A stretch of DNA of 64,000 bases from Thermoproteota archaeon (GTDB taxonomy: Archaea > Thermoproteota > Thermoprotei > Gearchaeales > Gearchaeaceae), in contig JAJPJK010000009.1 in NCBI GenBank assembly GCA_021324265.1, positions 70,164 to 134,163 of the forward strand, read 5' to 3'. Shown piece after piece: positions 7,216-19,311 of this stretch. Every line of letters begins with the position of its first letter. Within the stretch, counting starts at the first letter, position 1. The translations under genes were made by a program, and so were the position numbers. The notes beneath the pieces were generated by a model. It was not told where the DNA came from. It did not search any database and was given only the letters and a program-made list of their open reading frames with translations.

Positions 7216-8256
7216 ATGAGGATCTTAGTTACTGGTGGTGCAGGATTCATAGGCTCTCATGTAGCTGAATATTTCCAAAAAGATAACGAGGTGCTGATAA
7301 TCGATAATCTAAGCAGAGAAGAAATCTTAGGCAAAGGAATCGGAAGCAAAAGCTATAACTTGAACTACTTGAAAGGCTTCAAGAACATTAGTTTCTACAA
7401 CTGCGATATTAGAGATTTCGAGAAAGTTAAGGAAATAGGAAAAGGAATTGATGCTATAATTCATACAGCTGCACAGGTAGCGGTGACCACTTCACTGAAG
7501 AATCCTAGGCTTGATTTCGAAATAAACGCGCTAGGAACATTTAATATGCTAGAGCTTGCTAGGCTCAATGACGCTTCTTTAATATTTTGCAGCACGAACA
7601 AAGTTTATGGAGAAAATGTGAATAAAATTCCATTGTTAGAAAAGAATAGTAGGTATGAATATGCAGATGAAAGATTCATTGAAGGCATACCTGAAGATTT
7701 CTCCATCGATCTCACTGGCCATAGCCCATATGGTTGCTCAAAGCTTGCTGCCGATATTTATGTGCAGGATTATGCCTATACATATGGCCTAAAAACAGGA
7801 GTTTTCAGGATGAGCTGCATATATGGAGAAAGGCAGTTCGGCGTCGAAGATCAAGGCTGGGTAGCATGGTTCGTTATCGCAACTGAGATGGAAAGGAAAA
7901 TTACGATCTATGGTAATGGTAAGCAAGTAAGAGATTTACTTTATGTGAAAGACTTAGTTGAACTATATGATAAGTTCCTGAGCTCTAACATAAGGCATGG
8001 AGTATTCAATGCAGGAGGAGGCAGAAATAATGCCTATTCTTTGTTGGAGGTGATAGACATGATAAGAAAAATCCTCAATAAGAAGCCAGATTTAAACTAC
8101 TCAGATTGGAGGCCTGCAGATCAGAAGGTTTACATCTCTAATATAAGGAAAGCACATGAATTACTGAATTGGTATCCAAGAACAAGTGCAGAAGAAGGAA
8201 TAAAGAAGCTCGCTTTATGGGTAAGGAATAATAGGCAGTTATTCATTGGTCTATAG
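7216..8256 (+). CDS. NAD-dependent nucleotide-sugar epimerase/dehydratase (SDR family)
   Basis: N-terminal Rossmann motif 'MRILVTGGAGFIGSHV'. Catalytic 'YGCSK' (YxxxK). Size is 346 aa. Confidence 0.85.
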   Translation: MRILVTGGAGFIGSHVAEYFQKDNEVLIIDNLSREEILGKGIGSKSYNLNYLKGFKNISFYNCDIRDFEKVKEIGKGIDAIIHTAAQVAVTTSLKNPRLDFEINALGTFNMLELARLNDASLIFCSTNKVYGENVNKIPLLEKNSRYEYADERFIEGIPEDFSIDLTGHSPYGCSKLAADIYVQDYAYTYGLKTGVFRMSCIYGERQFGVEDQGWVAWFVIATEMERKITIYGNGKQVRDLLYVKDLVELYDKFLSSNIRHGVFNAGGGRNNAYSLLEVIDMIRKILNKKPDLNYSDWRPADQKVYISNIRKAHELLNWYPRTSAEEGIKKLALWVRNNRQLFIGL

Positions 8257-8269
8257 CTATATAGAATGA

Positions 8270-8581
8270 GATGTATACGTCCATCCTTCTTTATTCGAAA
8301 CTTTCCCTTATGCAATTAGAGAAGCAATGAGCTGTGGTAGGCCTATAATAGCAACAAAGGTAAGTTTTATTGACGAATATATTAAAGATGGAATAAATGG
8401 TTTTCTTGTAAATAAGGCAAATGAAAAGGAACTCGTGAAAGTTATTTTGGACATGATCAATGACGAAAATTTGAGAGAGAAAATGGGGGTTGAAAACAGA
8501 AAATTAGCAGAGGAGAAATTTGCAGTGGATAAAATTCAAAGGGAATGGATACAATTATATCATGAAGTTCTCAATCTCTAA
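8270..8581 (+). pseudogene. C-terminal fragment (~100 aa) of a GT4 glycosyltransferase, lacking the N-terminal domain
   Basis: The in-frame translation from the upstream stop reads 'DVYVHPSLFETFPYAIREAMSCGRPIIATKV...GINGFLV'. This is the GT4 E-x7-E C-terminal motif block. No N-terminal ~250 aa is present. Confidence 0.7.
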
Positions 8582-8605
8582 GTTTGCTTGTAAAAAATCT
8601 TTGAG

Positions 8606-17143: not shown

Positions 17144-17145
17144 GC

Positions 17146-17631
17146 ATGCAAATATTTCTAAAGGCTGCAATTCTTTTAATATTGCTTTCAGCCCAATATA
17201 ACAGCGATTATTATACGCTTTTGCAAAACACGCAAGATAAGCTCGCCATGCTAACTAGTATGCTTGAGCAATTAAAGGCTTATAAGTTCGATTACAACGA
17301 GCTACAAGCAGTGACTGCGAACGCAAGCATCGCTGTATCTTTGATAAATGAGGCCCAAATAATGCATGAGAAGGGCAACGATAGTGCAGCCATTAATTTG
17401 CTTTTGACCGCTAATCAACTCCTCGATGAAACTATAAAGTCAGCCAATGATTATTTGGCCAAAGTTCAAGCATATAACAACTTGCTAAGAATATCTTTTA
17501 TTTTCGCTACTCCTATCGCTGCTTTCATTACAAGTTACTTTTCAACAGTAGTATATAATTACCTAAATAAGAGAAGAATAAAAATCATTATTTCATCATA
17601 TGTTAGATTGAAGAAAGATGAAGATAAGTAA
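17146..17631 (+). CDS. Hypothetical membrane-anchored protein
   Basis: It has an N-terminal signal/TM segment and a C-terminal TM segment. No family is recognised. Confidence 0.35.
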   Translation: MQIFLKAAILLILLSAQYNSDYYTLLQNTQDKLAMLTSMLEQLKAYKFDYNELQAVTANASIAVSLINEAQIMHEKGNDSAAINLLLTANQLLDETIKSANDYLAKVQAYNNLLRISFIFATPIAAFITSYFSTVVYNYLNKRRIKIIISSYVRLKKDEDK

Positions 17632-18217
17632 AAAATTTCTTACTCTTTTCTTGATAATATTAGTGATATACTATATTGTTGCATATGTTTTTTTGACAAA
17701 TATACCTAGCCAAGAATTTTACGAGCTCGCTATCCAAGGGAAAAATAATGAAATCTTCCCCAACAACAATTCCACAATAACTATAGGAGAGAAAGTTCAA
17801 TGGGAATTCATCATCGTAAGTACATTTAGGACGCCTCGAATTGTAGAGATAGTTATGAAATTGGGCAATAACAATACAATGCTTCCCAATGATGTCAATG
17901 GTACTCCATCGAATGGAACAGAGATCTTTAGCTGGTTAGTTTATTTGACTTATGGCGTGAAGAAAGACTATTCCATTGAATGGGCAGTAAGTAGCGTAGA
18001 AAACAGGAGCGATTACTATTATCTAATTTTAAACATAAACAATACAATTATTAAACGAGTAGACGTAGGAGCTTATAAAGGAGAAAAGTTTAGAATAATC
18101 ATAGAACTATGGACATTGGAAGAGAATGGAGATTTCAGGTTTGGATGGGTCTATCAGAATCAGCTTTACATGATATGGTATCAGTATCCTTTCAACGTTA
18201 CTTTAGCTAAAAAATGA
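17618..18217 (+). CDS. Hypothetical secreted/membrane-anchored protein rich in N-glycosylation sequons
   Basis: An N-terminal TM helix is present. Multiple N-x-S/T sequons occur (NNST, NGT, NRS, NNT, NVT). Confidence 0.35.
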   Translation: MKISKKFLTLFLIILVIYYIVAYVFLTNIPSQEFYELAIQGKNNEIFPNNNSTITIGEKVQWEFIIVSTFRTPRIVEIVMKLGNNNTMLPNDVNGTPSNGTEIFSWLVYLTYGVKKDYSIEWAVSSVENRSDYYYLILNINNTIIKRVDVGAYKGEKFRIIIELWTLEENGDFRFGWVYQNQLYMIWYQYPFNVTLAKK

Positions 18218-19311
18218 AGGTAGCATTCATAGACTTATCAAGGGAATACAGAGCGCTGAAAGAAGAAATAGACAATTCAGTTAAGGAAGTATTTGAAAGC
18301 GGAAGATTTATCTTGGGTCCGAAGCTTGAGGCCTTTGAGAAGAATTTTGCTAAATATATAGGAGTAAAGCATGCAATAGGAGTTGCTTCAGGCACTGATG
18401 CCCTGCTCCTTGCATTGAAGGCCTTGAATCTCCCAAATGGTTGCGAAGTTTTAACCCAATCTTTCACGTTCATATCTTGTGCTGATGCGATAGTCAAAAA
18501 CGGATTTAAACCAATATTTTTCGATATTGAAGTAAACTCCTTTAATGCAGATGTAAATGATATAAAAAGAAGAATAACAGACAAAACGAAAGCCATTATA
18601 GTTAATAACATGTTCGGTCTCCCTGCAGAAATGGACGAAATCTTAGAGCTTGCGAGAGAAAAAGATCTTTTAGTTATAGAGGATGCAAGCCATGCCCATG
18701 GAGCAACTTACAAAGGGAGAAAGATAGGAAGCTTTGGAGATATAGCATGCTTCAGCCTTTACCCTGCAAAGATCCTTGGTGCGTATGGTGATGCAGGAAT
18801 AATAACCACTAACGATGAGAACATTGCAGAACTTTTAAGAATGTATAGAAACTACGGTCAAAGAGTGAAATATTACCACGACTTCATAGGATTCAATAGC
18901 AGGCTAGATGAAGTTCAGGCTGCGATTCTAGATATCAAGTTGAAGAGACTTGAGGAATATATAAGCAAAAGGAGAGCGATTGCCAAAATTTATAGAGAAG
19001 AGCTTGCTAGCTTTGTTTCTTTTCAGGAAGAAAAGAATTACATGAGGCATATTTATTCATATTTCGTAATCTCTTCAGAAAGAAGAGATGAACTCAAGAA
19101 ATACCTAGATAAGAGCGGTATAGAAACGATTATCCACTATCCTGTACCTATACACAAACAAAAGGCCTATGAGGAATTCAACACGCTGAGATTACCAGTA
19201 ACAGAACGTGCAGCTAGCATGGTTCTTTCGCTACCTATGCATCCATACATGTATGACGATGAAATAGCTTATGTGGTTGACAGTATCAAGGGCTTCTTCA
19301 AAAATAGCTGA
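18214..19311 (+). CDS. DegT/DnrJ/EryC1/StrS-family PLP-dependent sugar aminotransferase (WbpE-like)
   Basis: The PLP-lysine region is 'SLYPAKILGAYGDAGII'. Size is 365 aa. Its start overlaps the upstream gene's stop. Confidence 0.85.
   Translation: MKVAFIDLSREYRALKEEIDNSVKEVFESGRFILGPKLEAFEKNFAKYIGVKHAIGVASGTDALLLALKALNLPNGCEVLTQSFTFISCADAIVKNGFKPIFFDIEVNSFNADVNDIKRRITDKTKAIIVNNMFGLPAEMDEILELAREKDLLVIEDASHAHGATYKGRKIGSFGDIACFSLYPAKILGAYGDAGIITTNDENIAELLRMYRNYGQRVKYYHDFIGFNSRLDEVQAAILDIKLKRLEEYISKRRAIAKIYREELASFVSFQEEKNYMRHIYSYFVISSERRDELKKYLDKSGIETIIHYPVPIHKQKAYEEFNTLRLPVTERAASMVLSLPMHPYMYDDEIAYVVDSIKGFFKNS

Follow-up and report, generated by a model that had tools for sequence, protein, structure and literature searches.

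What does an ATP-grasp ligase do in a gene island that appears to build an amino uronic-acid sugar and holds no acetyltransferase to acylate it? The question is raised by a 64-kb stretch of DNA from a Thermoproteota archaeon (GenBank assembly GCA_021324265.1, contig JAJPJK010000009.1, positions 70,164 to 134,163 of the forward strand), which as a whole is called the window here and supplies all coordinates below. The explanation that we favour, with a probability of roughly 45%, is a surface-glycan island in which a 3-amino uronic-acid sugar is made and its amine is N-acylated by the ATP-grasp ligase. We infer the substrates, the regiochemistry and the acyl donor and acceptor of the ligase from gene identities at family level, conserved neighbourhoods, gene fusions and synteny. 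A first-pass annotation of the same DNA had proposed a WbpA/WbpB/WbpE-type pathway accompanied by an ATP-grasp enzyme. The six genes that it named are real open reading frames (ORFs) on the plus strand with strong Pfam or NCBIfam family matches:

9768..10631, plus strand, GalU-like sugar-1-phosphate nucleotidyltransferase (PF00483 1.6e-26; TIGR01099 galU 207 bits, under the 326.8 cut-off)
10653..11996, plus strand, UDP-glucose 6-dehydrogenase, AglM/TuaD-like (TIGR03026 428.7 bits, over the 189.8 cut-off)
12022..13083, plus strand, ATP-grasp carboxylate-amine ligase of an uncharacterised family
13106..14104, plus strand, Gfo/Idh/MocA oxidoreductase, proposed 3-dehydrogenase of UDP-N-acetylglucosamine or its uronate, UDP-GlcNAc(A) (PF01408 6.6e-20; 73% identical to its counterpart in the syntenic locus L087)
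14158..15483, plus strand, second NDP-sugar dehydrogenase, predicted UDP-N-acetylhexosamine (UDP-HexNAc) 6-dehydrogenase (TIGR03026 404.9 bits; 49% identical to the orthologue in the related locus L007)
18214..19311, plus strand, DegT-family PLP aminotransferase, proposed C3 aminotransferase (PF01041 1.3e-114, 383.7 bits)

The first five genes are separated by 21-53 nucleotides (nt) and therefore probably form one transcription unit. DUF1616, FEN1 and two small membrane ORFs separate the DegT gene from the others. For the UDP-glucose 6-dehydrogenase the best equivalog model is AglM (435.6 bits), with TuaD at 406.2 bits, both under their own equivalog cut-offs.

The oxidoreductase had been described as WbpB-like. 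Its closest family is instead NF040723, the archaeal UDP-GlcNAc 3-dehydrogenases (9.4e-40, 137 bits, residues 7-268 of 332), and the runner-up, inositol dehydrogenase (5.7e-21), follows 19 orders of magnitude behind in E-value. The same family came first for all six oxidoreductases taken from bacterial and archaeal loci that carry relatives of the ligase (148-349 bits), again with inositol dehydrogenase far behind. Among the 27 Gfo/Idh/MocA matches in the PDB (phmmer, E<=1e-3), none showed full-length similarity to the solved WbpB/WlbA enzymes. The sole candidate WlbA among them, 3q2i, which we take to be that enzyme, aligns at 2.2e-4 over residues 5-118, the Rossmann domain only. A WbpB/WlbA-type identity was ruled out, since there is no meaningful full-length similarity. 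A UDP-GlcNAc dehydrogenase that has seen experimental use is MMP0352, from Methanococcus maripaludis (bioRxiv 10.1101/2023.03.18.533286).

The DegT protein is a member of its aminotransferase family and is closer to C3 than to C4 enzymes. Its best solved relative is 7b0d (1.1e-125), an entry that bears an automatic name only and on which literature searches brought up nothing relevant, followed by QdtB (2.2e-95, 322.9 bits), the DesV-type 2oga (2.4e-84, 286.6 bits) and WbpE (1e-76, 261.6 bits), whereas the C4-type perosamine synthase and ArnB reach 1.3e-56 (195 bits) and about 1e-42 (148 bits). The nucleotide-sugar C3 aminotransferases span 261-347 bits, against 162 bits for NtdA. A perosamine-type enzyme was rejected, as the C3 enzymes score far above it, and the label WbpE-like holds in the sense of the C3 group that contains QdtB, DesV and WbpE. 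In one protein of 630 residues (P0227), a DegT relative is fused to a hexapeptide-repeat acetyltransferase, which shows that amination and acetylation are physically coupled in some lineages.

The second dehydrogenase matches Cap5O (1.2e-61) and the UDP-ManNAcA dehydrogenase of Pyrococcus horikoshii (4r16, 4e-59) best in the PDB, against 1e-31 or weaker for UDP-glucose dehydrogenases and 1e-25 for GDP-mannose dehydrogenase. It remains under the equivalog cut-offs (archaeal UDP-ManNAc dehydrogenase 264 bits versus 750; WecC 242 versus 459). On sequence comparison it belongs with the WecC/Cap5O/TviB/WbpA clade and is a predicted UDP-HexNAc 6-dehydrogenase, in agreement with the earlier label WbpA-like. 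These comparisons upheld the WbpA and WbpE assignments at the level of sub-families and overturned WbpB.

The reported absence of a left-handed beta-helix acetyltransferase was borne out for the whole window. An iterated profile, started from a WbpD/NeuD-like protein of a related locus, found none in six-frame segments of at least 50 residues, and the Pfam scans gave no Hexapep match. A complete WbpABED-type pathway is thus not present in the window, the WbpD/WlbB-type beta-helix N-acetyltransferase being missing.

Two known routes can be compared with this gene set. In M. maripaludis, the MMP0352 3-dehydrogenase, the MMP0351 aminotransferase, the MMP0350 acetyltransferase and the MMP0353 dehydrogenase lead to UDP-GlcNAc3NAc(A). 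The window resembles this route in an oxidoreductase that strongly matches just one family, the archaeal UDP-GlcNAc 3-dehydrogenases, in the pairing of DegT with a UDP-HexNAc 6-dehydrogenase and in serving an archaeal surface glycan; it differs in the lower score of its oxidoreductase, in having an ATP-grasp enzyme and no acetyltransferase, and in the splitting of its genes by FEN1. The WbpA-WbpB-WbpE-WbpD(-WbpI) route of Pseudomonas aeruginosa and Bordetella to UDP-ManNAc3NAcA is alike in combining 6-oxidation, 3-oxidation, 3-transamination and N-acylation of UDP-GlcNAc, and WbpE is homologous to DegT. However, the oxidoreductase of the window is not of the WbpB type, QdtB-type enzymes are nearer to its DegT than WbpE is, and neither WbpD nor a 2-epimerase is present. 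The best explanation is that the conserved core follows the logic of Methanococcus MMP0352/MMP0351 and not that of Pseudomonas WbpB.

The ligase is, judged by its modelled fold, a genuine carboxylate-amine-type ATP-grasp enzyme. Its AlphaFold2 model has a pLDDT of 93.1, and Foldseek relates it to PurD, the uncharacterised 2pn1, L-amino-acid ligases, biotin carboxylases, PurK and PylC (TM-scores 0.6-0.7, 12-18% identity), with a probability of 1.00 for PurD, biotin carboxylase, PurK and PylC. The nearest fold is that of PurD 2yw2 (E 1.8e-19, TM 0.68). PurD (4dim) is also reached at 7.8e-7 by a profile of 30 ligase sequences, and a search with the single sequence found no PDB relative at E<=0.1. 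PurD couples a small acid, glycine, to a sugar phosphate through the amino group of the latter; it differs from the ligase in sequence (15-18% identity), in an extra C-terminal domain that the ligase lacks and in genomic context. The ligase has the three-domain fold, the E-x-N Mg/ATP motif and the conserved Lys/Arg of the ATP-grasp superfamily. Over 81 sequences, 61 positions are at least 95% conserved, including E284, N286, K273, R289 and K111, and R219, R221, S232, G233 and R334 are invariant. Length is constant in the family (about 353 residues), and bacterial and archaeal members are 43-58% identical. More than 1,390 homologues match at 90% clustering, and 414 clusters match at E<=1e-30 among 1.84 billion representatives.

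A housekeeping role for the ligase was rejected because all curated equivalog scores are under their cut-offs: 18 bits versus 288 for purD (TIGR00877), 19.2 versus 275.6 for LysX and 23.6 versus 143.4 for the RimK family. A Pfam scan at E<=0.01 returned PylC-like_N, ATPgrasp_Ter and ATP-grasp_4 only; a TupA-like amidoligase of the Cj1438C type was rejected, as no TupA match was among them. The first-pass annotation had named two outcomes that would speak against it, a perosamine-type sub-family and a known housekeeping ligase, and neither was found; the structural modelling that it had called for led to PurD and other ATP-grasp ligases and to membership of no housekeeping family. Nothing relevant on an ATP-grasp/HAD/Gfo/DegT module or on an N-glyceroyl ligase came up in the searchable literature; to that extent the ligase family, and the conserved module that it forms with HAD, Gfo and DegT, appear to be undescribed. 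The ATP-grasp enzyme of pseudomurein synthesis is described as a lineage-restricted family of unknown function (PMC11915815).

The conserved context of the ligase in other genomes links it to the making of amino sugars. Relatives are encoded on 424 stretches from about 186,000 species genomes, and neighbours were counted in the best 80 of these loci, by tblastn with the window proteins and by de novo clustering of ORFs in 10-kb flanks. These 80 loci come from archaea (Thermoproteota, Nitrososphaerota, Altiarchaeia, Micrarchaeia, Aenigmatarchaeota, Nanoarchaeia, Methanomethylicota and several Asgard lineages) and from bacteria (many groups of the candidate phyla radiation (CPR), Chloroflexota, Actinomycetota including cultured Amycolatopsis, Rhodothermales, Bdellovibrionales and others). 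The most frequent neighbour is a HAD_2 hydrolase of about 200 residues, present in 57 of the 80 loci; it lies within 3.5 kb in 56 of them, and in 35 it begins about at the end of the ligase gene on the same strand. An MMP0352-like Gfo/Idh/MocA oxidoreductase accompanies the ligase in 42 loci, a DegT aminotransferase in 37, an epimerase/dehydratase of the short-chain dehydrogenase/reductase (SDR) type in 31 and a sugar 6-dehydrogenase in 4. Typical operons read Gfo-ligase-HAD-DegT or DegT-Gfo-ligase-HAD with overlapping gene ends, often beside a WecA/AglH-type initiating transferase, glycosyltransferases of families GT2 and GT4 and methyltransferases. Where both Gfo and DegT lie within 6 kb of the ligase, 27 of 31 loci have no beta-helix acetyltransferase. 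The ligase is also found fused, with HAD in L061, P0366 and P0115, with a WbmS-like polysaccharide deacetylase in P0449 and with an amidohydrolase in P0438. The HAD partner is most similar to phosphoglycolate phosphatases, under the cut-off. In one 1.9-Mb genome (L091, 14456-16479) the canonical order WecA-SDR-Gfo-ligase-HAD-DegT continues into two genes of the FemAB family and one for a polysaccharide deacetylase, an arrangement that hints that the glycan also receives aminoacyl groups.

The proposed pathway is as follows. The MMP0352-like oxidoreductase would oxidise C3 of UDP-GlcNAc or of its uronate, the DegT aminotransferase would turn the 3-keto sugar into a 3-amino sugar of the UDP-GlcNAc3N type, and the Cap5O/WecC-like 6-dehydrogenase would oxidise C6 to the uronic acid, while GalU and the UDP-glucose dehydrogenase would provide UDP-GlcA. 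The ligase would then activate a small carboxylic acid as acyl phosphate and pass it to the new 3-amino group, standing in for the missing acetyl-CoA-dependent beta-helix acetyltransferase. The acid may be donated in phosphorylated form and lose its phosphate after ligation; phosphoglycerate, for example, would give an N-glyceroyl group.

The first-pass annotation had left open whether the ATP-grasp enzyme amidates the uronate carboxyl or acts on the 3-amino group. The partners of the ligase (aminotransferase, deacetylase, amidohydrolase) create or expose a sugar amine and not a carboxylate, so that N-acylation is favoured over uronate amidation, and the general lack of the usual acetyltransferase beside the ligase supports an N-acylating role. 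The pairings and fusions with HAD suggest that one substrate of the ligase is phosphorylated and later dephosphorylated. A more specific idea, which we hold to be distinctly doubtful, is that the family of about 353 residues and its HAD partner decorate nucleotide amino sugars independently of acetyl-CoA, by means of a phosphorylated hydroxy acid (2- or 3-phosphoglycerate, phosphoglycolate or phospholactate) that is then dephosphorylated.

The nearest relatives of the ligase (L004 and L007, 73% identity) lie in loci that run Zn-alcohol-dehydrogenase-family gene, ligase, DegT and Gfo, with overlapping or nearly abutting ends. L007 additionally carries a UDP-HexNAc dehydrogenase, and its DegT, 64% identical to that of the window, directly follows the ATP-grasp gene. 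The Zn-dependent alcohol-dehydrogenase-family gene (PRK13771, 442.7 bits, over the cut-off; L004 1600-2619, L007 8982-10001) overlaps the start of the ligase and holds the slot that the UDP-glucose dehydrogenase has in the window. In a neighbour-joining tree the window ligase nests among sequences from DegT+Gfo+HAD contexts. Six conserved positions differ between its clade and the HAD-linked homologues, mostly in a conservative manner, the most notable change being E274 to C, K or A. These few differences give no hint of changed chemistry, and, given the nested placement too, the ligase probably works in the same way despite the absence of HAD.

Several observations weigh against the favoured explanation. 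The oxidoreductase does not reach membership of NF040723 (137 bits versus a cut-off of 450), and the best curated model for the ligase, PRK12767, gives 99.7 bits versus 218. A profile of 57 HAD partners found no HAD homologue in a six-frame search of the window, which weakens the idea of a phosphorylated acid for this genome; the Thermoproteota ligase clade (L004-L008) likewise has no HAD, and the window does not contain the adjacent ATP-grasp and HAD module. A 52%-identical homologue of DegT in Methanoregulaceae lies in the company of an RmlB-like dehydratase, an FdtA isomerase and a hexapeptide acetyltransferase, a dTDP-3-acetamido-6-deoxyhexose context, and the DegT clade therefore fixes the position (C3) and not the sugar.

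Synteny raises a further point of this kind. Two Thermoproteota loci (L087 and L088) share the order flippase, Gfo (73% identical), two GT4 glycosyltransferases, DUF1616, FEN1, two membrane ORFs, DegT (73%), two FtsX-like permeases, a membrane protein of 515 residues and a second SDR, SDR2 (85%). That FEN1 separates Gfo from DegT is thus an ancestral trait of the lineage, in which these two genes go together. Missing from both loci are the ligase, both dehydrogenases, GalU and the first SDR (SDR1), and from this comparison the GalU, UDP-glucose dehydrogenase, ligase, UDP-HexNAc dehydrogenase and SDR1 genes of the window constitute an accessory block that varies between strains, on top of a conserved amino-sugar core. 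No ligase or acetyltransferase lies within 10 kb in L087/L088, although Gfo and DegT are kept; it is evidently possible to form and use a 3-amino sugar without the ligase, or else its acylation is encoded elsewhere.

The alternative that survives best, though we consider it unlikely, is that the ligase amidates the C6 carboxylate of a uronate (UDP-GlcA, UDP-GlcNAcA or a glycan-bound uronate). Possible amines are an amino acid, of which the threonine amide in Methanococcus glycans offers an example, and a phosphorylated amino alcohol that HAD later dephosphorylates. The position of the ligase between two uronate-forming dehydrogenases, 25 nt past the UDP-glucose dehydrogenase and one gene ahead of the UDP-HexNAc dehydrogenase, suits carboxyl amidation as well and so also counts against N-acylation. 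A 6-dehydrogenase is likewise found in L007, L012, L020 and L077, but only 4 of the 80 loci have one within 10 kb, compared with 37-57 for DegT, Gfo and HAD. The Nanoarchaeia locus L077 combines a dehydrogenase, DegT, Gfo and a beta-helix acetyltransferase with the ligase; it has its own enzyme for the amine, and the ligase there is therefore not simply a replacement, a further point against our reading. In nine loci the ligase and HAD are joined by just an SDR, an aminotransferase being absent, and C6 amides do occur in archaeal N-glycans. The pairing of ATP-grasp and HAD is proven for such a reaction in Campylobacter jejuni, where the Cj1438C amidoligase and the Cj1435 HAD form a glucuronamide and the phosphate of the partner is removed after amide formation (PMC11800379). 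This system is like the ligase family elsewhere in placing an ATP-grasp ligase and a HAD phosphatase in a glycan pathway. Cj1438C, however, is TupA-like, is fused to a GT2 domain and activates the sugar carboxylate, whereas the window ligase has no TupA match and fits the PylC-like_N, ATPgrasp_Ter and ATP-grasp_3/4 models, its window has no HAD, and a sugar amine is favoured as acceptor, as the deacetylase and amidohydrolase fusions also suggest. The comparative context on the whole speaks for acylation of the 3-amino group and against amidation of the carboxyl.

It is also conceivable, but we think improbable, that there is no single pathway. Gfo and DegT would then make a core 3-amino sugar, the accessory block would independently supply UDP-GlcA and UDP-HexNAcA, and the ATP-grasp enzyme would act on something else, such as a small metabolite or peptide. 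This would agree with the ligase-free core of L087/L088 and with the mixed functions of an array that includes FEN1 and an AAA ATPase. It would also agree with a 71%-identical ligase homologue (L089) that lies among GH31, PIG-L, mu-crystallin-family and shikimate genes; this non-glycan context tells against N-acylation, too. However, in about 25 named bacterial and archaeal lineages the ligase repeatedly keeps company with Gfo, DegT, HAD and initiating glycosyltransferases, with overlapping gene ends, and it directly abuts DegT-Gfo in its nearest relatives.

A sugar-phosphate module like that of kanosamine synthesis (NtdC/NtdA/NtdB), in which the ATP-grasp enzyme would acylate an aminosugar phosphate and HAD would take off the sugar phosphate, is very improbable: the combination of Gfo, DegT and HAD is that of NtdCAB and RifLKM, PurD is the nearest ATP-grasp relative, and TIGR01454 ("AHBA synthesis associated protein") is among the NCBIfam matches of HAD, but DegT scores far higher with nucleotide-sugar aminotransferases than with NtdA, the oxidoreductases match UDP-GlcNAc 3-dehydrogenase best, the operons start with a WecA-like transferase (UDP-HexNAc donors) and hold no kinase, mutase or nucleotidyltransferase for re-activation, and the window lacks HAD.

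Returning to the 3-amino uronic-acid pathway and its surroundings, the span 7216-19311 had been presented as one cluster. The pathway genes are indeed there, yet the span is of mixed purpose (an SDR, a GT4 fragment, a complete GT4, DUF1616, FEN1 and membrane ORFs) and the island extends further. It is a co-directional array on the plus strand from the flippase at 526 to the end of the second SDR at 24038, and it terminates at an archaeal rRNA operon. Its remaining genes and this boundary are:

526..2091, plus strand, Wzx-like polysaccharide flippase, start of the island (PF13440 1.2e-15, PF01943 2.5e-10; 52% identical to the orthologue in L087)
2091..3197, plus strand, GT4 glycosyltransferase GT4a (PF00534 2.1e-28; L087 orthologue 67% identical)
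3678..6317, plus strand, inserted pair of an ORF of 352 residues with no assigned function and an AAA_14/DUF4143 ATPase (PF13173 7.3e-36; not in L087/L088)
7216..8256, plus strand, SDR nucleotide-sugar epimerase/dehydratase SDR1, accessory block (PF01370 8.3e-47)
8327..8581, plus strand, C-terminal GT4 fragment of 84 residues (PF00534 7.9e-12, profile positions 113-171 only)
8606..9709, plus strand, GT4 glycosyltransferase GT4b (PF00534 3e-25; 56% identical to L087)
15552..16145, plus strand, DUF1616 membrane protein, conserved in synteny (PF07760 1.1e-14; also in L087/L088)
16121..17143, plus strand, flap endonuclease FEN1, a housekeeping gene outside the pathway (TIGR03674 402.8 bits, over the 351.95 cut-off)
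17146..18217, plus strand, pair of small membrane ORFs whose ends overlap and which run on into DegT (no Pfam match; 47-50% identical orthologues at the same place in L087)
19311..21553, plus strand, two FtsX/MacB-like permeases, ends overlapping DegT (PF12704, PF02687; conserved in L087)
21537..23078, plus strand, polytopic membrane protein of 513 residues (sub-threshold PMT_2 1.5e-4 and STT3 4.8e-3 only; 50% identical to L087)
23109..24038, plus strand, SDR nucleotide-sugar epimerase/dehydratase SDR2, end of the island beside the rRNA operon (85% identical to L087)
24085-27159, minus strand, 23S rRNA
27298-28794, minus strand, 16S rRNA

The inserted pair at 3678..6317 is probably not part of the pathway, and the roughly 900 nt after the ATPase (6318-7215) contain no ORF of at least 80 residues. 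The best NCBIfam model for SDR1 is dTDP-glucose 4,6-dehydratase (162 bits, under the 365 cut-off), and there is no orthologue at the matching position in L087. The 84-residue fragment between SDR1 and the complete GT4b resembles what recombination would leave behind at the border of the accessory block; together with the inserted AAA_14 ATPase it marks rearrangement there. FEN1 is embedded with overlapping ends, a position kept in L087/L088 (7839-8867), and lies between the oxidoreductase side and the aminotransferase side in the window as in these relatives. The 513-residue protein is possibly a GT-C glycosyltransferase. The permeases have no adjacent ATPase and are conserved together with it in relatives, and the region 19311-23078 may be a unit for glycan export or transfer. 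SDR2 scores 158.8 bits with dTDP-glucose dehydratase and 141.8 bits with GalE, both under cut-off.

The rest of the window carries housekeeping genes, namely TiaS, thermosome, GGGP synthase, archaeosine TGT and a Trm5/Tyw2-family tRNA methyltransferase. At 60468-63428 there is a protein of 986 residues with an N-terminal DUF1156, in a region of 43% G+C with strong skew versus about 34% elsewhere; the region may have come from a foreign source, perhaps with a restriction or defence methylase. Large ORFs without family match (729, 356 and 325 residues, and others) at 38276-40465 and 48245-54097, around a T2SSE-like ATPase (51045-52748), may represent an archaeal pilus or secretion locus.

The host had been thought to be Sulfolobales-like, and this did not hold. 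The top 120 thermosome matches contain no Sulfolobales; the best are metagenome-assembled genomes (MAGs) of Thermoproteota/Thermoprotei (72-95%), ahead of Thermofilaceae (67%) and of Methanomethylicia, Bathyarchaeia and Nezhaarchaeales (64-66%). For the glycan genes, the closest relatives among genomes are Thermoproteota MAGs and SCGC AAA471-B05, a single-cell genome from Yellowstone. The host is an uncultured Thermoproteota lineage of hot environments, and the contrast that had been drawn with sulfoquinovose-containing N-glycans is therefore moot. The NCBI record for the identical ATP-grasp and DegT proteins names a "Geobacterales bacterium", a bacterial order. This label cannot be right, because the DNA has archaeal 16S/23S rRNA, archaeal RNase P, thermosome and GGGP synthase, and it probably arose when an uncultured Thermoproteota order was mapped to the wrong taxonomic name.

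The predicted glycan component is not a new class of sugar, as had been supposed. Diamino uronic acids recur in the O-antigens of Pseudomonas and Bordetella, in the N-glycans of Methanococcus and Methanoculleus and, within the Thermoproteota, in Pyrobaculum calidifontis, which has the N-glycan core GlcA(NAc)2-Glc(NAc)2 (PMC8993221). The N-glycan of Methanoculleus marisnigri contains a 2,3-diaminoglucuronic acid that has an N-acetyl and an N-glyceroyl group and is amidated at C6. The glycans of these two archaea are of the class that this locus would make, and the M. marisnigri sugar, with its non-acetyl N-acyl group and C6 amide, would by analogy be a precedent for the proposed product. The sugar class being known, the ligase family and its module appear to be the new part. 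Pathways for the acetylated forms are known, while the enzymes for non-acetyl N-acyl groups (glyceroyl, aminoacyl) or for C6 amides are largely unassigned, and the ligase family is a concrete candidate for this missing step of sugar N-acylation or amidation. If the idea of a phosphorylated hydroxy acid were true, the products would be N-glyceroyl, N-glycolyl or N-lactyl groups on diamino uronic and nonulosonic acids, such as those of M. marisnigri, and the route would be widespread, in CPR bacteria, DPANN, Asgard, Nitrososphaerota, Thermoproteota, Actinomycetota and others.

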